DNA of 6,167 nucleotides from a virus. Position 1 is the stretch's first letter. The number at the start of each line of letters is the position of its first letter. The notes under the pieces were generated by a model. It ran no database searches. It worked only from the letters and a program-made list of their open reading frames with translations, and had not been told where the DNA came from. Positions 119 to 6,167 of this stretch are shown here, piece by piece. The DNA is taken from IMG/VR virus record IMGVR_UViG_3300020030_000089, positions 1 through 6,167 of that record; one strand, 5' to 3'. A program made the translations under genes and the position numbers.

Positions 119-821
119 AAGGATGGCAAGATTCGGTATTATAAATTATGATTCCGATTCTATCGTTTCTATTGTTCGTGCTTATTATCAGTATCTTACA
201 TTGAATCATCACCTAACCAATGAAGACGAAATTATATTACATAATGCTCGGTGCCTTACTAGGCTCTGTAACAGTTCTTCTGATGTCGATATTGAATCTT
301 ATCTTAATAAGTTGTATCGACTATTCCTTTATGTCAGTAAGTTCCTTAGGAATTGGCATCTGCCTCCCATCGGTGGTAATCTTGATTCTTATGCCAATCG
401 TATTATGTTTATCCTCAAAACCGGAATAGAATATGAAAAGAAAGCGGACTATGTACGAATGTGTGATTCGTTGCGAATACAACAGACTTTGCCAGCCCCT
501 ATGCTTCGGTATTTCTATGTACCAGCCGAAGGATGCGAAATGGCGACCATTGGTATCGGAGAAGACGGAGAATATGCAGACGGATTTATTCGTCCCGTTA
601 AAGAACAGATACACGTTCCGTTTGATGACCCCAGAATCCCACCTCTCGCGACTTGTAATTACATTAAATCCGCGAAGCCCGATACAAGAAGTGCCTATGA
701 TAGTGGGCAAAGTAGCAACTTACAAAAATGTCTTGATTTCCGTGCTTCTACCTTCTGTCGCGATATGATTAAGCATAAGAAACTTAATGACGCGAATGAT
801 ATATTTAACCAGATGGTTTAA
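1..821 (+). CDS. VP4: Replication initiation protein VP4 (HUH endonuclease), C-terminal part. It continues the ORF that starts at 5047. The first full codon starts at nt 3 and the stop TAA is at 819-821.
   Basis: ORF 18..821 is in the same frame as the open ORF 5047..6167 once the 6049-nt circle is closed (18+6049=6067, and 6067-5047=1020=340 codons). There is no stop between nt 3 and nt 18 (aac tca act ccc ccc atg). The joined protein is 607 aa. Confidence 0.85.
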   Translation, partial: NSTPPMSYIRTLLPRFSSARYDDAVAIARIIRAVASAPKRMARFGIINYDSDSIVSIVRAYYQYLTLNHHLTNEDEIILHNARCLTRLCNSSSDVDIESYLNKLYRLFLYVSKFLRNWHLPPIGGNLDSYANRIMFILKTGIEYEKKADYVRMCDSLRIQQTLPAPMLRYFYVPAEGCEMATIGIGEDGEYADGFIRPVKEQIHVPFDDPRIPPLATCNYIKSAKPDTRSAYDSGQSSNLQKCLDFRASTFCRDMIKHKKLNDANDIFNQMV

Positions 822-842
822 TCTTTTAATTATTAACTATTT

Positions 843-2582
843 ATGAGTGATTTTAATCCGCTAGACCGAGCGAAAATTGCCGTTCATCGCTCTTCCTTTG
901 ATTTATCTAGCAAAAAGTTGTTTACGGCAAAAGTTGGTGAAATTCTACCTGTTTATTGGCAGATTGCTATTCCTGGTAATAAGTATCGTATTAAATCAGA
1001 TTGGTTTACTCGTACTGTTCCGGTAAATACTGCTGCGTATACGCGTATTAAGGAATACTATGATTTTTACGCTGTGCCGTTACGCTTGATTTCTCGTGCT
1101 TTACCTCAAGCGTTTACTCAGATGTCTGATTATATGACTTCTGCCGCTTCGATGTCCGAGAATTCAGAACAATTAACTTCCGTTCCGTATACCACTACTT
1201 CTGAGATTAGTAACTTTATCTCAAACGCTTCTGTTCTTTTGGATGATGCTAATATCCCTTATCGTTACGGTGCTTGTAAGTTGTTGGATTACCTGAACTA
1301 TGGTTCTATCCTTGACCCAAATTCTTTGTCTAAGGCTATTGTAACTGCTGCATATACAGGTATTTCTGATTTGGATGATAATTTGAATCCTCTTCTTTAT
1401 AAGAGGTCTGTTGCGGTTAACCTGCTTCCCCTATTGTCTTATCAGAAGATCTATTTTGATTTCTTTAGCAACTCCCAGTGGGAAAAACATCAGGCATTTG
1501 CTTATAATGTAGATTATTGGGACGGTACTTCCGCATTCACCAAACAGACCATGTCCTATACTTGGATGCAATTACGCTACTGTAACTATCCTAAGGATAT
1601 GTTTATGGGAGTTCTTCCGGCGTCACAGTATGGTTCGGTTGCTGTTTTACCTGGTGTATTGTCTCCTACTGATAATCCGTCCCGTGTTTATGCTTATACT
1701 TCTGGTACTGGCTCTGTTGGTTCTATTATGAATTCTGCCTCTTCTAATAGTGTTACTACTAATAATACCTCTACCGCTACTCGCTATGCTACTCTTAATT
1801 CTGACCTTTCCGCCCTCGCAATCCGTGCAACAGAATACCTACAACGTTGGAAAGAGGTAGTTCAATTCTCCAGTAAGGACTATTCTGACCAAATGGCTGC
1901 TCAATTTGGTATTAAAGCTCCTGAATACATGGGTAATCATGCTCATTATATTGGTGGCTGGTCTTCTGTAATTAATATTAATGAAGTAGTTAATACTAAC
2001 CTTGATACCGATACTTCTCAGGCTAGTATTGCTGGTAAAGGCGTTAGCTCTAATAGTGGTCATGAAATTACTTATGATTGTGGTGCTGAACACTGTGTAA
2101 TCATGTGTGTTTACCATGCTGTTCCTATGTTGGATTGGGCTTCTACCGGACAACATCCTCAGTTATTGGTTACTTCTATTTCTGATTTTCCTCAGCCTGC
2201 TTTTGACCAGCTTGGTATGCAACCTGTTCCCCAAGTATCTATGGTTAACTCTAAGAATATGTCCGGCGATGGTACTGGAAATATTGGCTATAATCTTCGT
2301 TATTGGCAGTGGAAATCTGATATTGACCGTGTCAATGGAGCTCTCCGTCCTCAATTAGCTTATCAGGCATGGGCTGCGCCTTTAGGAGGTGAAAACCTTT
2401 TGACTCGTACTGGTCTTTGGAATTATAAATCTATGAAAGTATTCCCGTTCCAGATGAACTCTATTTTCTTACCCCAGGTTACTACGGCTAGTTATTCACT
2501 TGCTGTAGACCAGCTAATCTGTAATGTTAATTTTCAAGTTTATGCTGTTCAGAATTTGGACAGAAATGGTTTACCTTATTAA
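843..2582 (+). CDS. VP1: Major capsid protein VP1 (phiX174 F / Phage_F family), 579 aa
   Basis: The N-terminus SSFDLSSKKLFTAKVGEILPVYWQIAIPGNKY...IKEYYDFYAVPLRLI parallels phiX174 F (PHDLSH...IGRL...PVIAGD...VDIFTFYVPHRHVY) and gokushovirus/alpavirus VP1. It is the longest ORF and has a strong T-ending codon bias. An internal S/T/N-rich segment sits where VP1 insertion loops occur. Length fits non-phiX microviruses. Confidence 0.92.
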   Translation: MSDFNPLDRAKIAVHRSSFDLSSKKLFTAKVGEILPVYWQIAIPGNKYRIKSDWFTRTVPVNTAAYTRIKEYYDFYAVPLRLISRALPQAFTQMSDYMTSAASMSENSEQLTSVPYTTTSEISNFISNASVLLDDANIPYRYGACKLLDYLNYGSILDPNSLSKAIVTAAYTGISDLDDNLNPLLYKRSVAVNLLPLLSYQKIYFDFFSNSQWEKHQAFAYNVDYWDGTSAFTKQTMSYTWMQLRYCNYPKDMFMGVLPASQYGSVAVLPGVLSPTDNPSRVYAYTSGTGSVGSIMNSASSNSVTTNNTSTATRYATLNSDLSALAIRATEYLQRWKEVVQFSSKDYSDQMAAQFGIKAPEYMGNHAHYIGGWSSVININEVVNTNLDTDTSQASIAGKGVSSNSGHEITYDCGAEHCVIMCVYHAVPMLDWASTGQHPQLLVTSISDFPQPAFDQLGMQPVPQVSMVNSKNMSGDGTGNIGYNLRYWQWKSDIDRVNGALRPQLAYQAWAAPLGGENLLTRTGLWNYKSMKVFPFQMNSIFLPQVTTASYSLAVDQLICNVNFQVYAVQNLDRNGLPY

Positions 2583-2593
2583 TTTGTATTGTT

Positions 2594-3046
2594 ATGAGAA
2601 GATTTGATTATATTCCCCCTACTCCTGAAATTGGAGATAAGTTTGGCCCTATTGATGATGTTGAGGGACATCCCGCTTATCAACCTGGTGTATTTGATAC
2701 TGTTCAGACAGATGAATTACCAGATGGTTCATTAATCTTTAATGATATGACTGCCATCCTCCTTAATCAAGAAAAGTATCGTCGTCTCCTTGGTGATATG
2801 AATGTTGCTAATATCTTGGCTCAGATGCATCCGACACAGACTACTGCTATGGATGGTATGACAGATGAACAGCGTTTTGATTGTATTATCTCTCGCCATT
2901 GTCAAACTATGTCTGAGCGCCAGGCTGTATTGCAACAGTTGGCTTCTGAAAAGTCTGAACTTACGGCTTATGCCGAGGCTATGTTGGCAGAGCGAACAGT
3001 AGAGCCCGCTTCTGAAGCGTCCGCCCCTGCTGGTAGTGCTCAATGA
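2594..3046 (+). CDS. Hypothetical protein, putative internal scaffolding protein (VP3-like), 150 aa
   Basis: Sits between VP1 and VP2. Size is about 150 aa, it is acidic, and the codon bias matches neighbouring genes. Its stop overlaps the VP2 start (caATGA). I recognise no catalytic motif. The assignment rests on position, size and character only. Confidence 0.5.
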   Translation: MRRFDYIPPTPEIGDKFGPIDDVEGHPAYQPGVFDTVQTDELPDGSLIFNDMTAILLNQEKYRRLLGDMNVANILAQMHPTQTTAMDGMTDEQRFDCIISRHCQTMSERQAVLQQLASEKSELTAYAEAMLAERTVEPASEASAPAGSAQ

Positions 3047-4158
3047 AATTCTATGACATCGGAGAAAGCCCCTTAATGGGGTACTCCCAAAAACATATCG
3101 CTCCGCTTGTTCTTGGTGGCATTATTGCTGCTGGTGCTTCTCTTGCTGGTAACGCTATTGGTGCTGCCTCTCAGGACAAGACAAATCTGACTTCTATCGA
3201 TATTAATCGTCAGAATAATGAGTTTAATGCTGCTGAAGCCGAAAAACAGCGTCAATGGCAGGAAGAGATGTGGACCAGGAATAATGAGTATAATAGTCCG
3301 ACTGCTATGATTTCTCGTGGTCTTAATCCTTATATTGGTTCTTCTGTTGGTGCTGGTGTTTCTAAGTCTCCTGCCTCTGGAGGTTCTGCTGCTCAATCTG
3401 TCGGTATGCCATCTTTGCAAGCGTTTCGCCCTGATTTTTCTGATGTTGGTTCTGCTCTTGCTTCTATGGCTCAGGCTCGTGCTGCTATGATGAATGCTGA
3501 GGTAAACGCTGAACTTACTCCTTATAAGATTCAACAAATTCGTGGTGCTACTGATTATCGTAATATTGGTATTGGTGAATCTGGTTATTGGACTCCCTCT
3601 ACCGGCAAACGTTCTGCTCTTCTTGATCAGTCTAAGGAATATCAAGAATTAAAGAATATGGAATTTGCTGCTCGCCTTACCTCTGCTCAAGAGGCCCAGA
3701 TTCTTTTAGATTCTCAGGCTCAGCAGACGTTGAATAAGTATCTTGATGAACAGCAACAGGCTGATCTGTTTATTAAAGGTCAGACCCTTGCTAATCTATA
3801 TGCACAAGGTGCTCTTTCTGAGGCTCAGTATAAAAATCAGATGGCTCAGGCTGTAAAGACTGCTGTTGAAACGAATGGTATTCGTATTAATAATAGGATT
3901 GCTGCTGAAACCGCTGATTCTCTAATTTACGCTAATATCCAATCTAATCGTGCTCGTGGTCTTTCTGACCTTTGGACTTCTAAGAATATAAACGTTCTTA
4001 AGAATGTTGAGTATAGCAAGGAAAAGTCTGTACGCGATTACTATAAATGGTCTGCAAAACAGAAGTCTAAGGATGTTAATTCTTACGAGCTTCGTAATGC
4101 CCTTGAGTATGGTACTCGTATATTCCAAGGTATAGGTAATTCTATTGGTCGTAAATAG
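3043..4158 (+). CDS. VP2: Minor capsid / DNA pilot protein VP2 (phiX174 H analogue), 371 aa
   Basis: Has a Gly/Ala-rich hydrophobic N-terminal segment (IAPLVLGGIIAAGASLAGNAIGAA). This is followed by the motif typical of microvirus VP2, NNEFNAAEAEKQRQWQEEMWTRNNEYNSPTAMISRGLNPY. It then has a long Q/A-rich helical region (AQEAQILLDSQAQQTLNKYLDEQQQADL...). ATGA overlap with the upstream gene. An alternative start is ATG at 3076. Confidence 0.85.
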   Translation: MKFYDIGESPLMGYSQKHIAPLVLGGIIAAGASLAGNAIGAASQDKTNLTSIDINRQNNEFNAAEAEKQRQWQEEMWTRNNEYNSPTAMISRGLNPYIGSSVGAGVSKSPASGGSAAQSVGMPSLQAFRPDFSDVGSALASMAQARAAMMNAEVNAELTPYKIQQIRGATDYRNIGIGESGYWTPSTGKRSALLDQSKEYQELKNMEFAARLTSAQEAQILLDSQAQQTLNKYLDEQQQADLFIKGQTLANLYAQGALSEAQYKNQMAQAVKTAVETNGIRINNRIAAETADSLIYANIQSNRARGLSDLWTSKNINVLKNVEYSKEKSVRDYYKWSAKQKSKDVNSYELRNALEYGTRIFQGIGNSIGRK

Positions 4159-4197
4159 TTTTATTCATCTTCTGTGTTTATTAGTTTATTCATGATT

Positions 4198-4240
4198 GGC
4201 TTGCTCGTGATGAGTAGGCCTTTTTTGTTGTTCTTTTTTT
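4198..4240 (+). terminator. Rho-independent terminator candidate downstream of VP2
   Basis: Stem ggcttgctc (4198-4206), loop gtgat (4207-4211), stem gagtaggcc (4212-4220). That is 9 pairs including two G-U. It is immediately followed by ttttttgttgttcttttttt (4221-4240) and lies 40 nt after the VP2 stop. Confidence 0.6.
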
Positions 4241-4283
4241 CCGAAAGTACGTTTTCTTCAGGTTTGAATCAAGCGAAGCCCCT

Positions 4284-4351
4284 AGTTGCGTCCGAAGGAA
4301 AATTGAGTTATCCTCTCAATTTCGTCTCTTCTTGTCCATAAACGCGCAACT
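4284..4351. promoter_or_regulatory. Nested inverted repeats (structured DNA/RNA element) in the only long intergenic region. Candidate origin or complementary-strand priming structure.
   Basis: Outer 7-bp inverted repeat agttgcg (4284-4290) / cgcaact (4345-4351). It encloses a perfect 8-bp hairpin aaattgag (4300-4307) / ctcaattt (4315-4322) with the 7-nt loop ttatcct. The local sequence is visibly more G/C-rich than the rest of the genome. Confidence 0.4.
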
Positions 4352-4427
4352 CACACCCAACTGTAGAATCTGAATCTCCAAAAAAAAATCTCCAAGTTAT
4401 TTGCTTTTTTGAAAGATATTTCTTTCT

Positions 4428-4461
4428 TTTGCCCCCTGTAAAAACCAATTCATTAGTTTAT
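4428..4461 (+). promoter_or_regulatory. Possible Bacteroidota-type promoter (-33 TTTG, -7 TAnnTTTG-like) ahead of the small-gene/rep block
   Basis: tttg at 4428-4431 and tagtttat at 4454-4461 (TAnnTTTG with the last G replaced by T), separated by 22 nt. The ATG of the next gene is 22 nt downstream. The match is imperfect and the context is AT-rich. Confidence 0.25.
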
Positions 4462-4483
4462 TAACATTTAAAATTTTACAATT

Positions 4484-4678
4484 ATGCAGAAATTTATTAT
4501 TTCCCTTAAAGAAAAACAGACTGGTCGCGATATTTTACCGCCTTATATTGTCAATTCTCTGGATGGTCTTGGAAATTATTCTGAGCGAGTTTCTCCGTTG
4601 GGTCTTATTGTTATTGTGGATTCAATTAAAGAAGAAAATGATTTTGTCGAACTTAAAACTCAAGCTGATGAAAAATAA
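4484..4678 (+). CDS. Hypothetical small acidic protein, 64 aa
   Basis: Complete ORF directly after the intergenic region. Most of its codons end in T, like the confirmed genes. Its end overlaps the start of the next small gene by 11 nt. No recognisable motif. Confidence 0.6.
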   Translation: MQKFIISLKEKQTGRDILPPYIVNSLDGLGNYSERVSPLGLIVIVDSIKEENDFVELKTQADEK

Positions 4679-4751
4679 TAATATTTGGAAAATCGTAATT
4701 GGAGCTATTTCTGCTGCTCTTGGTTATATTCTTAATGCTATCGGGTTATGA
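4668..4751 (+). CDS. Small single-pass membrane peptide, 27 aa (MKNNNIWKIVIGAISAALGYILNAIGL). Candidate holin-like or membrane-targeting partner of the M15 peptidase.
   Basis: ATG at 4668 lies inside gctgATGaaaaat. A polar MKNNN head is followed by an uninterrupted stretch of about 20 hydrophobic residues. Codons are T-ending (aat aat aat att...gct att tct gct gct ctt ggt tat att ctt aat gct). Its stop overlaps the peptidase start (ttATGA at 4748-4751). The longer track ORF 4548..4751 shares this frame, but its upstream part overlaps the better-supported frame of 4484..4678. Confidence 0.5.
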   Translation: MKNNNIWKIVIGAISAALGYILNAIGL

Positions 4752-5044
4752 ATTCTGATCTTATGCATTTTCTTGATAGTTTGCTTTTTTTTAACTATCA
4801 TTTTACAATAACGAGTGCTTATCGCACTCCAGAACAGAATAAAGCTGCTGGAGGTGTTCCCACCTCTCAGCACTTAAAAGGCGAAGCTATTGACTTCAAG
4901 CCTTATGGTTCTACGACTTATAATCAGTTGTTACTATACATTATGGATAATGTTGAATATGATCAGTTCATTATTTATGATGGATTCATGCATATATCCT
5001 TTAGCTCAAGGAATCGTCATCAATTAATCGATAAAAGAAGGTAA
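4748..5044 (+). CDS. Zinc D-Ala-D-Ala carboxypeptidase-like peptidase M15 (Peptidase_M15_3/M15A-like), 98 aa. Putative endolysin.
   Basis: The signature ITSAYRTPEQNKAAGGVPTSQHLKGEAIDF matches the family pattern SxYR[ST]PxxNxxxGGxxxSxHxxGxAxD. The downstream GFMHISF supplies the third metal ligand. The predicted triad is H42 (nt 4871-4873), D49 and H82. There is no signal peptide and no wall-binding domain. Confidence 0.8.
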   Translation: MNSDLMHFLDSLLFFNYHFTITSAYRTPEQNKAAGGVPTSQHLKGEAIDFKPYGSTTYNQLLLYIMDNVEYDQFIIYDGFMHISFSSRNRHQLIDKRR

Positions 5045-5046
5045 TT

Positions 5047-6167
5047 ATGAAATATACTCCTGATTTACTTAAAGTCGCTGATCATTGCCAGCATCGCTCT
5101 TTTATAACTAATCGTTACACAGGCCGACGTATTGCTGTAGATTGTGGACAGTGTGATTACTGTATTTATAAGCGTGCTCAAAAAGCGTCCATGCGTGTGA
5201 AGACCGCTGGAAGTGCTTTCGAATATTCTTATTTCGTGACGCTTACTTATGATAATGAGCATATCCCTTTGATGAATTGTGAGGTGCTGCATAATGAGTA
5301 TGAAGATGCTTTAAGTATTTCAGGAGATAAAGTTTTTGGTTATGAGAAACATTCGTATATCCCGGTATCCGAATATAGTTGCTCAGATACATCTCGCTTG
5401 CGTCATATATTCTTTACACAAGTACAGGGTACAGTGCCGTATAACCGTGAGTCGTCTCAGTATGAACCGGTTAAGGATAATTGGTTTCTTTCTATGGATG
5501 CTATCCGCTCCTTTATTGCTAAGACGAAGTCCGCTACACCTTACGGTAAAGAGGGAGAACTTTCCGCTAGATACGGAGATAATCTTATCCCTTATTTGAA
5601 CTATGTCGATGTTCAGAACTATATTAAACGATTGCGTAAACATTTAAAAACAGCTTTAGGTTCTTATGAAACGTTACATTTCTTCGCTGTGGGTGAATAC
5701 GGACCAGTCCATTTCCGCCCGCATTATCATATCTTATTATTCACGAACTCGAAAGAAGTCTCAAAGGTATTACGACAGTGTCATGATAAGAGTTGGAAAC
5801 TCGGTCGTTCAGATTTCCAGGCTTCCCGCGGTGGAGCTTCATCGTACGTTGCGAGTTACATTAATAGCTTTTGCTCTACTCCCCTATTATATAGATCATG
5901 CCGTGCGTTTAGACCCCGTCAAAGAGCATCTATTGGATTTTTTGAAAAAGGCGAGGTTTTTGAGGAAGGTGAAGACATCTATCACGCGATTGAGCAAAAA
6001 ATCGATTCTGTCGTTAATGGAAGAATCTATAACTTCAACGGGATTAGTGTTAACTCAACTCCCCCCATGTCGTATATCCGTACCTTACTCCCCCGATTCT
6101 CAAGTGCTCGCTATGACGATGCTGTTGCGATTGCTAGAATTATTCGAGCTGTTGCAAGCGCGCCAAA
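5047..6167 (+). CDS. VP4: Replication initiation protein VP4 (HUH rolling-circle endonuclease, phiX174 A analogue), N-terminal part. Open at the window end and continues at nt 3..821.
   Basis: My own translation from ATG 5047 has no stop up to 6167. It shows an N-terminal Cys/His cluster (HCQH...CGQCDYC) and motif I FVTLTY (nt 5233-5250). Motif II is HFRPHYHILLF (PHYH at nt 5719-5730). Motif III is YVASYINS, with two Tyr three residues apart (nt 5845-5847 and 5857-5859) as in phiX174 A. This ORF is absent from the supplied ORF track because it lacks a stop in the window. Confidence 0.9.
   Translation, partial: MKYTPDLLKVADHCQHRSFITNRYTGRRIAVDCGQCDYCIYKRAQKASMRVKTAGSAFEYSYFVTLTYDNEHIPLMNCEVLHNEYEDALSISGDKVFGYEKHSYIPVSEYSCSDTSRLRHIFFTQVQGTVPYNRESSQYEPVKDNWFLSMDAIRSFIAKTKSATPYGKEGELSARYGDNLIPYLNYVDVQNYIKRLRKHLKTALGSYETLHFFAVGEYGPVHFRPHYHILLFTNSKEVSKVLRQCHDKSWKLGRSDFQASRGGASSYVASYINSFCSTPLLYRSCRAFRPRQRASIGFFEKGEVFEEGEDIYHAIEQKIDSVVNGRIYNFNGISVNSTPPMSYIRTLLPRFSSARYDDAVAIARIIRAVASAP
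6050..6167. repeat. Terminal redundancy copy 2 (identical to 1-118)
   Basis: Same sequence as 1-118. It lies inside the rep coding frame. Confidence 0.95.

Follow-up and report, generated by a model that had tools for sequence, protein, structure and literature searches.

Microvirus lysis has been worked out in phiX174-like phages only. For the abundant microviruses of the gut and the environment, no lysis mechanism has yet been settled (PMC3394797, PMC9239249). The locus described here raises the question of whether two adjoining genes, a very small ORF for a predicted membrane peptide and an ORF for a minimal M15 peptidase, could act together to this end. An initial annotation of the DNA had read them as a two-component lysis module, in which the peptide would serve as a dedicated, holin-like or pinholin-like partner of the enzyme; the 27-aa and 98-aa ORFs that it listed, and the ATGA overlap between them, are all present as it placed them (Table 1).

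The window, by which we mean the whole stretch of DNA analysed (6,167 nt), is the genome of a microvirus, with a Phage_F capsid protein (Pfam), a pilot protein and a replication initiator (Rep) that spans both window ends. Bases 1-118 are repeated at 6050-6167, which gives a circle of 6049 nt for this gut microvirus. The region of interest is tightly packed: Rep begins 2 nt past the M15 stop, and the ATG of the short peptide form sits 11 nt within the 3' end of ORF64. An inverted-repeat scan of the non-coding gap upstream (4159-4483) gave nothing convincing. Rep carries conserved +1-frame ORFs, including one for a 69-aa protein; the lengths of the Rep-embedded ORFs are 84, ~180, 69 and 64/111 aa. 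A bacterium of the order Bacteroidales is the probable host; its identity is not established, since the bacterial genomes searched contained no close prophage (two distant M15 matches only) and the capsid protein is just 35% identical to that of phiHBP1.

Table 1. Positions of the features discussed, in window coordinates (type A is one of four sequence types of the small peptide, described in the text).
Feature	Position	Strand	Basis or remarks
Core ORF, 27-aa predicted single-TM peptide (short form)	4668..4751	+	ATG 4668, TGA 4749-4751
Long form of this gene (probable)	4563..4751	+	+1 overprint on ORF64, 62 aa
Minimal Peptidase_M15_3, 98 aa, candidate endolysin	4748..5044	+	Pfam, PHROG 894
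ATGA junction of core-ORF stop and M15 start	4748..4751	+	Sequence; same in 69/71 type-A loci with M15
ORF64, 64-aa protein, "host" gene of the overprint	4484..4678	+	Conserved in all type-A loci
Rep (replication initiator)	5047..6167, continuing 119-821	+	Crosses window end
69-aa ORF with two hydrophobic segments, inside Rep	220..429	+	+1 frame, 77/78 type-A genomes

The core ORF encodes MKNNNIWKIVIGAISAALGYILNAIGL, in which eight N-terminal residues with a net charge of +2 are followed by 19 uncharged residues that run to the stop and have a mean Kyte-Doolittle hydropathy of 2.0; the assignment to the membrane is by hydropathy only. Small residues (G/A/S/N) are gathered on one face of the predicted helix. 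Related peptides adjoin M15, upstream or downstream, in approximately 150 microvirus contigs and fall into four sequence types, A to D, all of which have a net positive N-terminus and an uncharged C-terminal helix of 18-23 residues, about half of them small and clustered on one face.

Patterns of nucleotide substitution identify this ORF as a real gene rather than a product of chance. In type A, the 21-codon core occurs as 18 different nucleotide sequences in 18 related loci, its variable sites are distributed 11/3/19 over the three codon positions, and dN/dS is ~0.09, as compared with 0.26 for M15. Type B comprises 33 nucleotide variants that encode 10 peptides (codon-position variability 7/1/19), with an identity of 0.95 for the peptide versus 0.76 for M15. 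Changes between the type-C loci of MG945328 and MG945336 are mostly synonymous and include the serine swaps TCT/AGT and TCT/AGC; a strict type-C DNA pattern had no match in IMG/VR. Searches with a profile HMM of the peptide returned a single strong match per microvirus locus (E<1e-9), always beside M15, and no other strong match, the next best being a frameshifted copy in locus L083 (E=0.003). The initial annotation had placed its proposal at risk on this very point, naming a lack of conservation and of purifying selection in relatives as evidence against it; the small ORF proves to be conserved and to evolve under purifying selection, and the proposal thus passes its own test.

Neither the 27-aa peptide nor its 62-aa form matched any entry of Pfam or PHROGs. 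A search of protein databases with padded peptide sequences retrieved 382 homologues, none of which has a Pfam domain and which are named "hypothetical", as are all of the 44-82-aa versions that gene callers give elsewhere on ~6-kb contigs. The peptide is undescribed in the GenBank records examined and in the searchable literature, where we also found no description of a microvirus holin or of a membrane partner for M15, in agreement with the initial annotation, which knew of no such partner.

The 27 residues are a conserved core and not necessarily the sole product, since their frame is kept open upstream of the short-form ATG, from 4413 onward. In the window, translation from ATG 4563 would yield 62 aa and from TTG 4548 would yield 67 aa, adding a hydrophobic N-terminal segment and a K-rich loop; counted from the first ATG, the product has 73 aa in 54 of the 81 unique loci. 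In the +1 frame of ORF64 there is a single stop in 1175 at-risk sites, against 15-33% in MCP, VP2, Rep, ORF150 and M15. This avoidance is limited to stop-forming bases (TAG 1/723, TAA 0/452, TGA 0/452; TGG 23.5%), and the +2 frame of ORF64 is normal in this respect. Of 79 loci, 58 have an upstream ATG at ORF64+46, and the proximal, short-form ATG is kept across type-A loci although the C-termini of ORF64 vary. ORF64 itself, which has no Pfam or PHROG match, shows a dN/dS of 0.40 and a dS reduced to 0.62, the latter fitting the expectation for a dual-coding stretch. Judged from these frame and codon patterns, the gene is probably also translated from upstream in this lineage, as a form of 62-73 aa, and the long and short forms may constitute a dual-start pair, an arrangement that would recall S107/S105 of lambda. 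An AlphaFold model of the 62-aa form consists of one continuous helix (pLDDT 91, pTM 0.41) and is uninformative on hairpin or topology. We rejected the view that the hydrophobic upstream extension is a mere by-product of T-rich third positions, the stop avoidance being specific to ORF64 at equal T3 content; its hydrophobicity as such does remain a by-product of this kind. The peptide had been described as far shorter than classical holins, which may not apply to the main product, the ORF being very probably longer (62-73 aa) in this lineage.

The neighbouring gene had been read as a zinc peptidase of family M15 with an intact metal-binding triad and no export signal, and each of these assignments was confirmed. 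The 98-aa protein matched Peptidase_M15_3 of Pfam (PF08291) with E=9.6e-12 and 45.4 bits (cut-off 23.2), and PHROG 894, "endolysin", with E=9.6e-21. The Pfam match covers profile positions 40-107 of 108 only and is thus short of a complete domain, making the protein N-terminally minimal: it lacks the ~30 first residues of full-length M15_3 homologues, including the FSxxE helix, and its N-terminus aligns with an internal helix of those proteins. Over 70 genomes nevertheless conserve this truncated form, with a length of 97-104 aa and the dN/dS of 0.26 given above. An alignment of 13 sequences that included full-length M15_3 proteins showed the zinc triad H42, D49 and H82 to be invariant, together with S23, R26, N31, S40, G45 and A47; the motif S40-Q-H42-L-K-G45-E-A47-I-D49 fits SxHxxGxAxD, and the C-terminal xH motif is represented by M-H82-I-S. 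The N-terminus contains no signal, TM or SAR segment (maximum 15-residue Kyte-Doolittle mean 0.89). Sequence matches included 1LBU and the T5 endolysin. The AF2 model (pLDDT 84, pTM 0.70) found VanY (5hnm), 1lbu and LdcB (4oxd) as its top PDB folds, with probabilities of 0.84-0.99 but as weak matches (E 0.02-0.2, TM-score ~0.5). We class the protein as a LAS-type zinc peptidase and a candidate endolysin. In tailed phages, Bacteroides phage B40-8 among them, M15_3 homologues carry endolysin annotations, and Roux et al. have proposed the microvirus M15 as an endolysin (PMC3394797). We rejected, as a model of this gene, the longer "peptidase" CDS of 125 aa that is given for Dulem viruses 226, 238 and 243: the added residues come from reading the TM ORF out of its proper frame, lack conservation, and are interrupted by stops both in the window and in L001.

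How consistently the two genes travel together was assessed from both sides. Among 72 microvirus-size contigs collected by way of M15, three lacked upstream DNA; of the other 69, all but one have a strong peptide-HMM match beside M15, and the remaining contig has a frameshifted copy. Eight larger contigs from the M15 search gave no peptide-HMM match. Conversely, in a sample collected by way of the peptide, M15 is present in 73 of 80 contigs and lies directly downstream in 71. The other seven are sister genomes in which the peptide is intact, no M15 motif occurs in any frame, and Rep follows ~50 nt past the TM ORF. ORF64 together with the TM ORF is a conserved unit 5' of Rep, with or without M15. 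The reverse condition, M15 without the peptide, is found in microvirus mar63 and in phiHBP1, an isolated microvirus of Bacteroides fragilis. The pair is thus a frequent but separable module and not an obligate one, and the claim that the peptide is a dedicated partner of the peptidase has to be withdrawn. Neither gene needs the other, and independent functions fit these distributions equally well; adjacency is, moreover, weaker evidence in a 6-kb genome than in a large one.

Recurrence of the pairing extends beyond the lineage of the window. Other microvirus lineages carry related peptides downstream of different M15 subtypes (126-132-aa and 166-aa M15), and one of these blocks, the ~700-nt segment that Kirchberger et al. 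reported as recombined between microvirus families (PMC9239249), contains the TM ORF too, indicating co-transfer with M15. Junctions vary: type A has an overlap of -1, the spacings of type B are 3, 9, 12, 13, 16 or 21 nt, and the two ORFs of L016/17 stand 2 nt apart in different frames, while types C and D place the peptide downstream of M15. The initial annotation had asked whether a small TM ORF is conserved directly upstream of M15 in other microviruses: such an ORF does recur, with other M15 subtypes as well, and it is not always upstream. Where the ATGA junction occurs, the two genes are, on the evidence of their overlapping codons, translationally coupled.

Taking these results together, we tentatively read positions 4548/4563-5044 as a compact, coupled lysis cassette, with somewhat less than an even chance of being right; in it, the membrane protein would play the primary part and M15 that of an accessory endolysin. 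Retention of the membrane protein in sister genomes that lack M15 points to it as the primary and indispensable member, and M15, having neither a signal nor a TM segment, would need a route out of the cytoplasm. The first gene would encode a very small inner-membrane protein, probably oriented N-in/C-out, whose conserved 27-aa core would place its basic N-terminus in the cytoplasm, followed by one helix of 19-21 residues, which bears a stripe of small or polar residues, and no C-terminal tail. The second would encode a cytoplasmic, minimal M15_3 zinc peptidase that cuts the peptide stems of peptidoglycan. Late in infection, the membrane protein would build up, self-associate via its small-residue face, and then permeabilise or depolarise the inner membrane; the lesion would let the signal-less, 11-kDa M15 reach the murein, with failure of the wall as the outcome. 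As a horizontally mobile accessory, M15 may make lysis faster or independent of host growth. Insertion into the membrane, its topology, the formation of oligomers and lesions, the timing and the muralytic activity are all inferred.

Comparison with characterised systems shows how far the likeness to holins goes. In lambda S-R and other holin-endolysin cassettes of tailed phages, as here, a small membrane gene is coupled to an adjacent muralytic gene without a signal, and the endolysin of Bacteroides phage B40-8 belongs to the same enzyme family, M15_3. Unlike those cassettes, the present one has a core of only 26-31 aa with one helix, no charged C-terminal tail and no holin homology; its membrane gene is overprinted, the pair is separable in nature, and no spanin was found. 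Pinholin S21-68, the partner of SAR endolysin R21, likewise has a G/A/S-rich helix, and small lesions or depolarisation suffice in that system, whereas M15 has no SAR or signal-anchor domain, so that depolarisation alone would not release it. The suggestion of a holin-like protein stands in part. Adjacency to an endolysin gene is seen in types A, B, C and D, and a TM segment is predicted (by hydropathy only). A hydrophilic, highly charged C-terminal domain is absent, all four peptide types ending in the hydrophobic helix; Pfam and PHROGs revealed no homology to a holin family, and no spanin or other outer-membrane-disrupting function suited to a diderm host was identified.

The main rival to the cassette, unlikely in our estimation but deserving close attention, is a wall-synthesis inhibitor of the phiX174-E/LysM type: the small membrane protein would bind and block one of the steps at the membrane by which peptidoglycan precursors are supplied (MraY, MurJ or similar), growing cells would lyse without an exported enzyme, and M15 would be an independent add-on or act once the wall is already failing. 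Protein E of phiX174 (91 aa, an MraY inhibitor) is also a small microvirus membrane protein whose gene is +1-overprinted, and its single TM helix carries the function in an enzyme-free lysis that matches the M15-less sister genomes. As in systems of single-gene lysis, the window encodes a small, +1-overprinted protein with a predicted TMD; a muralytic enzyme, foreign to such systems, is present in the window as M15, and the seven sister genomes encode the peptide but no muralytic enzyme of any kind. Overprinting in the +1 frame is found for E in D and for most sgl genes of ssRNA phages (PMC7693330). LysM (SglM) of ssRNA phage M, a MurJ inhibitor of 37 residues with a single TMD (PMC12506998), is comparable in size and build and shows that some 30-40 residues can suffice for phage lysis. 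The dN/dS of the helix is, furthermore, as expected of a specific protein-protein interface. Set against these parallels, Pfam and PHROG searches showed no similarity to E, LysM or other Sgls; E consists of an N-terminal TMD and a cytoplasmic C-terminal domain, whereas here the helix is C-terminal and ends the protein, in a genome that adds a peptidase; and LysM comes from an unrelated phage class. Inhibition of wall synthesis would also leave no need for the peptide to be paired so tightly and repeatedly with M15, and transferred along with it, as is observed in several lineages.

A still less likely reading assigns the membrane protein no role in lysis, but one as an accessory like protein K of phiX174, a superinfection-exclusion factor, or a membrane helper of replication or assembly, its adjacency to M15 merely reflecting that so packed a genome is permissive to insertion at one site only. 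Protein K is a hydrophobic protein of 56 aa whose gene overlaps A and C; it resembles the present peptide in being small, hydrophobic and overprinted, but it is non-essential, is unlinked to a lysin and shows no sequence similarity. The occurrence of each gene without the other fits such a reading, as do the constancy of the ORF64-TM ORF unit before Rep irrespective of M15 and the horizontal acquisition of M15 genes by microviruses at few positions (PMC3394797, PMC9239249). One permissive site, however, hardly explains both gene orders with different M15 subtypes and families, and the ATGA coupling would make expression of M15 depend on translation of the TM ORF.

M15 might, alternatively, work without a membrane partner, hydrolysing precursors in the cytoplasm in the manner of VanX/VanY (D-Ala-D-Ala or UDP-MurNAc-peptides) or aiding entry after delivery in the virion. 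A signal-less enzyme suits a cytoplasmic substrate, its nearest structures are VanY, the 1LBU DD-peptidase and LdcB, and phiHBP1, with M15 and no recognisable peptide, makes plaques (PMC13064476). We nevertheless think this improbable: the fold matches are the weak ones noted above, and the M15_3 homologues of tailed phages, annotated as endolysins, occupy holin-endolysin cassettes (PMC3394797). Microvirus Ebor, which like the present virus combines a hydrolase with a tiny predicted membrane protein (Gp1, 45 aa), produces a zymogram-verified peptidoglycan hydrolase, Gp7, of which its virions contain no more than traces (PMC11980548), and this speaks against delivery by that route. Ebor differs in that the genes for Gp7 and Gp1 are not reported as adjacent or coupled, no role is proposed for Gp1, the Gp7 lysin has 146 aa with 6SSC_A as its best HHpred match, and the host is an alphaproteobacterium.

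Equally to be weighed, and marginally more improbable, is that the holin is the 69-aa product overprinted on Rep, with the 27-aa peptide acting as an antiholin-like regulator or being unrelated. Within type A this ORF is 69 aa long in 65 of the 77 genomes that have it, all 77 sequences being different, stop avoidance is specific to the +1 frame of Rep, and its size and two hydrophobic segments are nearer to those of class II holins. Type-B genomes, which retain M15 as well as the mini-TM peptide, do not conserve the ORF in this form, however; it does not adjoin M15; and T-rich third positions render every +1 frame hydrophobic, so that hydrophobicity alone is weak evidence. That -1 frameshifting or stop read-through joins the TM peptide and M15 into a membrane-anchored or SAR-type endolysin is largely refuted and scarcely credible, for although the peptide is G/A/S-rich like SAR domains and most type-B loci have both ORFs in the same frame with the stop and one codon between them, the junctions differ among types, the peptide is downstream of M15 in C and D, GGG-TTA-TGA is no slippery site, the stops are strong, being TAA in 33 of 39 type-B loci, and no fused protein occurs among the 382 database homologues, all being at most 82 aa among the matches listed.

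It is possible, if doubtful, that the mini-TM family is the primary lysis effector of Alpavirinae-like gut microviruses, either as the smallest holin (26-31-aa core) or as a new "protein antibiotic" against a Bacteroidales wall enzyme, perhaps with a dual-start, overprinted timer, with M15 as a mobile, optional booster and with several conserved overprinted genes, in ORF64 and in Rep, that standard annotation has passed over. Gene callers that set a minimum of 90 nt and make no provision for overprinting will systematically overlook microvirus genes, limits that also account for the mis-extended peptidase in three GenBank records. What emerges here is a defined, widely conserved and hitherto unannotated gene family, having a profile, clear boundaries and natural "knockouts" in the form of M15-less and peptide-less genomes. 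If the peptide is a holin, it would set a new lower size limit for holins; if it is an Sgl, it would reveal a druggable weak spot in the wall synthesis of Bacteroidales.

Comparative analysis indicates that the 27-codon ORF preceding the M15 peptidase gene of this gut microvirus is a real, conserved and unannotated gene. Its sequence (MKNNNIWKIVIGAISAALGYILNAIGL) begins at an ATG inside the final 11 nt of ORF64 and ends at a TGA that overlaps the ATG of the peptidase gene as ATGA, the overlap pointed out in the initial annotation. At 84 nt the ORF falls under the usual 90-nt minimum of gene callers; it is annotated in no GenBank relative inspected and in none of six (0/6) in which it is present in its own frame, and in three of these six records the peptidase CDS has been wrongly extended upstream through it, out of frame. 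In PP511396, PP511323 and PP511322 (locus 638-1012) the CDS, labelled 'peptidase' or 'hypothetical protein', is overextended by 63 nt and reads 124 aa, versus a true ~103.

Among 18 loci of the window's lineage (type A of four peptide sequence types, A-D), the 21-codon core has 18 distinct nucleotide sequences and an almost constant peptide, variable sites being distributed 11/3/19 over the codon positions. Pooled dN/dS is 0.09 for the peptide, 0.26 for M15 and 0.40 for ORF64, and the conservation and purifying selection that had been proposed as a check on the small ORF are thus both evident. A second type, B (MKSETKSKIWSAIIAAAVSLLTSIAQIFS), comprises 33 nucleotide variants encoding 10 peptides, with codon-position variability of 7/1/19 and an identity of 0.95 for the peptide against 0.76 for the adjacent M15. 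An HMM built from 13 peptides and applied to all 15,140 stop-to-stop ORFs of the loci in the search set gave exactly one strong match per microvirus locus (E = 1e-15 to 6e-10), always adjoining M15; the next-best match (E = 0.003) was a frameshifted copy, and M15 loci on larger contigs of tailed-phage size gave none. A database search with the peptide returned 382 proteins, those listed being 44-82 aa in length and on contigs mostly of ~6 kb or less; none of the 382 has a Pfam domain, and the names given are almost always 'hypothetical'. At one type-B locus (L083, 2912-3001) an indel alters the C-terminal half of the peptide (...AAAVSLLIFLRLLLKYFRKS), which ends with the ATGA overlap onto M15; either natural variation or faulty assembly could account for this.

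The window represents a complete circular genome with a true size of 6049 nt, an exact 118-nt terminal direct repeat (bases 1-118 and 6050-6167) being the assembly overlap of the circle. All genes lie on the + strand, and the gap between the pilot gene and ORF64 contains no conserved ORF and only weak inverted repeats.

Features of the circular genome, in window coordinates
Feature	Position	Strand	Basis
Major capsid protein	843-2582	+	Pfam Phage_F
ORF150	2594-3046	+	ORF
Pilot protein	3043-4158	+	PHROG pilot families
Non-coding gap	4159-4483 (325 nt)		between pilot gene and ORF64
ORF64	4484-4678	+	ORF
27-codon ORF	4668-4751	+	ORF
98-aa ORF (M15)	4748-5044	+	ORF
Rep	5047 to 821, spanning the circle junction	+	ORF
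Rep +1-frame ORFs	5342-5599; 5666-6167 continuing 119-144; 220-429; 433-768	+	stop avoidance

In GenBank, the closest relatives are Dulem viruses of lemur faecal origin, along with Microviridae obtained from dog faeces and from a human vaginal sample. Since the capsid protein is 35% identical to that of phiHBP1 (PV598014), a Bacteroides fragilis phage reported to be the first microvirus isolate with a Bacteroidota host (PMC13064476), the host is likely to belong to the Bacteroidales; no close prophage was found among 185,579 bacterial genomes scanned.

The 98-aa protein matches Peptidase_M15_3 (Pfam; E = 9.6e-12, over the curated threshold) and PHROG 894, 'endolysin' (E = 9.6e-21), and H42, D49 and H82, together with a SAYR...N motif, are invariant in alignment with full-length M15 homologues, bearing out the minimal peptidase with an H-D-H zinc triad recognized in the initial annotation. 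The first ~30 residues of the domain are missing and the N-terminus is not hydrophobic by hydropathy, in agreement with the claimed lack of an export signal. The solved structures closest in sequence are the Streptomyces Zn DD-peptidase 1LBU and the T5 L-alanyl-D-glutamate endolysin; a predicted model (pLDDT 84) found VanY, 1LBU and LdcB as best folds, all with weak scores. M15 peptidases are already known in microviruses (PMC3394797, PMC9239249, PMC9865509).

Seventy-two microvirus-size IMG/VR contigs were found via M15, three of them lacking upstream DNA; the peptide ORF lies directly upstream in 68 of the remaining 69, the other having the frameshifted copy. A search with the type-A peptide pattern recovered 80 contigs; M15 was immediately downstream in 71 (with the ATGA overlap in 69 of these) and present in two further contig-edge cases. 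Seven type-A genomes of 5.4-6.1 kb (IMG/VR contigs L128, L163, L169, L180, L188, L191 and L204) retain ORF64 together with an intact peptide whose C-terminus reads ...GYILSAIGV; Rep begins ~50 nt further on, and none of the frames of these genomes contains an M15 motif. In M15-bearing Microvirus mar63 and phiHBP1 the mini-TM family has no recognisable member, nor was a peptide found near M15 in four further M15-bearing microviruses, one a gokushovirus; the sequence covered for a fifth, MT135414, ends ~110 nt past M15 and is uninformative on the peptide. The pairing recurs in other lineages with the order reversed: in MG945328, MG945336, MG945875, MT135448 and MT135365 a related peptide (MTKEQLNKISNALCALISAVCAALSYFFS) begins within the 3' end of M15, for which most of these records give a length of 130-132 aa; a similar peptide lies 3' of M15 in MT135399, and in OQ686874 another (MNKKIKKVIEIIIAVLSALLGAFAGTQL) overlaps the end of a 166-aa M15. 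By alignment, the ~700-nt recombinant block described around the peptidase in MG945328 and MG945336 by Kirchberger et al. (PMC9239249) takes in the TM ORF, substitutions between the two being mostly synonymous and including two Ser TCN/AGY swaps. Judged from these genomes, linkage of peptide and M15 is frequent and recurrent and not obligate: the pairing originally noted stands as a conserved adjacency, and either gene can occur without the other.

Upstream of M15 the same block, shared by these distantly related microviruses, contains ~300 nt of near-identical non-coding DNA (4737-5036 in MG945328, 5030-5362 in MG945336) with a GC-rich motif, ACGTGAGGAAGGCGAACTTGTTCGC, repeated twice, which may belong to an origin or a hairpin.

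The 27-codon ORF is read in the +1 frame relative to ORF64, and in the window this frame is open from 4413. We scored sites at which a base choice would create a +1-frame stop (codons with T in second position, followed by one that begins with A or G) from codon 16 onward in 79 ORF64 genes. One stop occurred at 1175 such at-risk sites, compared with 15-33% in MCP, VP2, Rep, ORF150 and M15. This avoidance is base-specific (TAG at 1 of 723 sites, while TGG reaches 23.5%; TAA and TGA at 0 of 452); A is used, at 6.7%, in fourfold-degenerate codons not at risk, and stops are normally dense in the +2 frame. The frame is open in 76 of 77 cases, with 35% expected from within-gene synonymous shuffling, and the lowered dS of ORF64 (0.62 versus 1.1-1.2) fits dual coding. 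Third-position T is 0.59 in ORF64 and 0.55-0.58 in other genes; an origin of the open frame from T-rich third positions, which yield hydrophobic, partly stop-poor +1 frames in every gene, is ruled out by the at-risk test. Type A thus very probably makes a longer form as well, and a dual-start arrangement is therefore possible in that lineage. Translation from the first ATG would yield 73 aa in 54 of 81 unique loci; the window has ATA at that position, and its own first ATG (4563) would yield 62 aa. The proximal ATG is retained in type A despite varied overlapping ORF64 C-termini (DEK, DGN, DENK, NGE, NGK, IHE, VHE). Type B shows no +1 stop avoidance (11% stops, 11-60 open codons upstream), and types C and D and loci L016/17 have the short form only. 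We take the conserved functional core to be a 26-31-aa peptide, so that the 27-aa ORF first described survives as that core and is probably longer in the type A lineage.

The product of ORF64 itself is small, conserved and acidic-tailed and matches nothing in Pfam or PHROG; what look like counterparts, compared by eye only, precede M15 in type B, mar62/63 and phiHBP1 (e.g., MEKYYLCSIQSK..., MEEKKYYFAVLHY...).

The same specific stop avoidance extends over long stretches of the Rep +1 frame: in codons 210-375, third-position A amounts to 18-20% at sites not at risk and to 0 of 742 at at-risk sites. Four +1 ORFs conserved within Rep in 78 type-A genomes (84-87, 175-183, 69, and 64 or 111 aa) are probably overprinted genes; the type-B genomes tabulated likewise keep the ~180-aa ORF, with a length of 176 aa. 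The phiX174 gene A contains overprinted genes B and K, and Rep would harbour its +1 ORFs in much the same way; the fourth, strongly basic, could be J-like. The 69-aa product (220-429, +; MKTKLYYIMLGALLGSVTVLLMSILNLILISCIDYSFMSVSSLGIGICLPSVVILILMPIVLCLSSKPE) is very hydrophobic, with two TM-like segments, and is found in 77 of 78 type-A genomes, at exactly 69 aa in 65 and with no two sequences identical; type-B genomes do not conserve this form of it. It matches a class II holin in size and is an alternative holin candidate.

Peptides of all types begin with 7-10 residues of net charge +1 to +3 and continue with 18-23 uncharged residues up to the stop, about half of them G, A, S, T, C or N and biased toward one helical face, an architecture that suggests an N-in/C-out helix packing against itself or a partner. 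Because the predicted M15 would by itself have no route across the membrane, and tailed-phage M15_3 genes are endolysins with holin neighbours (PMC3394797), the best-supported reading is that peptide and M15 form a compact lysis cassette, a candidate phage lysis module. Since the peptide is retained in genomes that lack M15, the membrane protein would be the primary component and M15 a mobile accessory, optional to the system. For such microviruses the literature searched describes neither a membrane partner, as the initial annotation supposed, nor a holin or an overprinted small gene for a membrane protein; Ebor Gp7, a biochemically verified microvirus lysin, is of a different kind, and Ebor encodes in addition a 45-aa membrane protein with no assigned role (PMC11980548).

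The chief rival is that the peptide blocks the supply of wall precursors in the manner of E or LysM. It is consistent with the sister genomes that have no enzyme, with +1 overprinting, which is typical of single-gene-lysis (sgl) genes (PMC7693330), and with a helix conserved to an extreme degree; sequence alone cannot separate it from the lysis cassette. Like holins, the mini-TM protein has a predicted TM segment and adjoins a lysin gene, but it has neither a charged C-terminal tail nor homology to a holin family; it agrees structurally with Sgl proteins, but the window encodes a predicted muralytic enzyme. We therefore file it in neither family. Lesser rivals are a non-lysis membrane function for the mini-TM protein, action of M15 on cytoplasmic precursors or at entry, and a holin that is a different protein; a TM-M15 fusion produced by recoding can essentially be dismissed.

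In phiHBP1, Rep and a 54-aa ORF are followed by a full-length 134-aa M15_3 (84-488, - strand), recorded only as 'hypothetical protein', and this isolated phage is a tractable system for testing M15 requirements.
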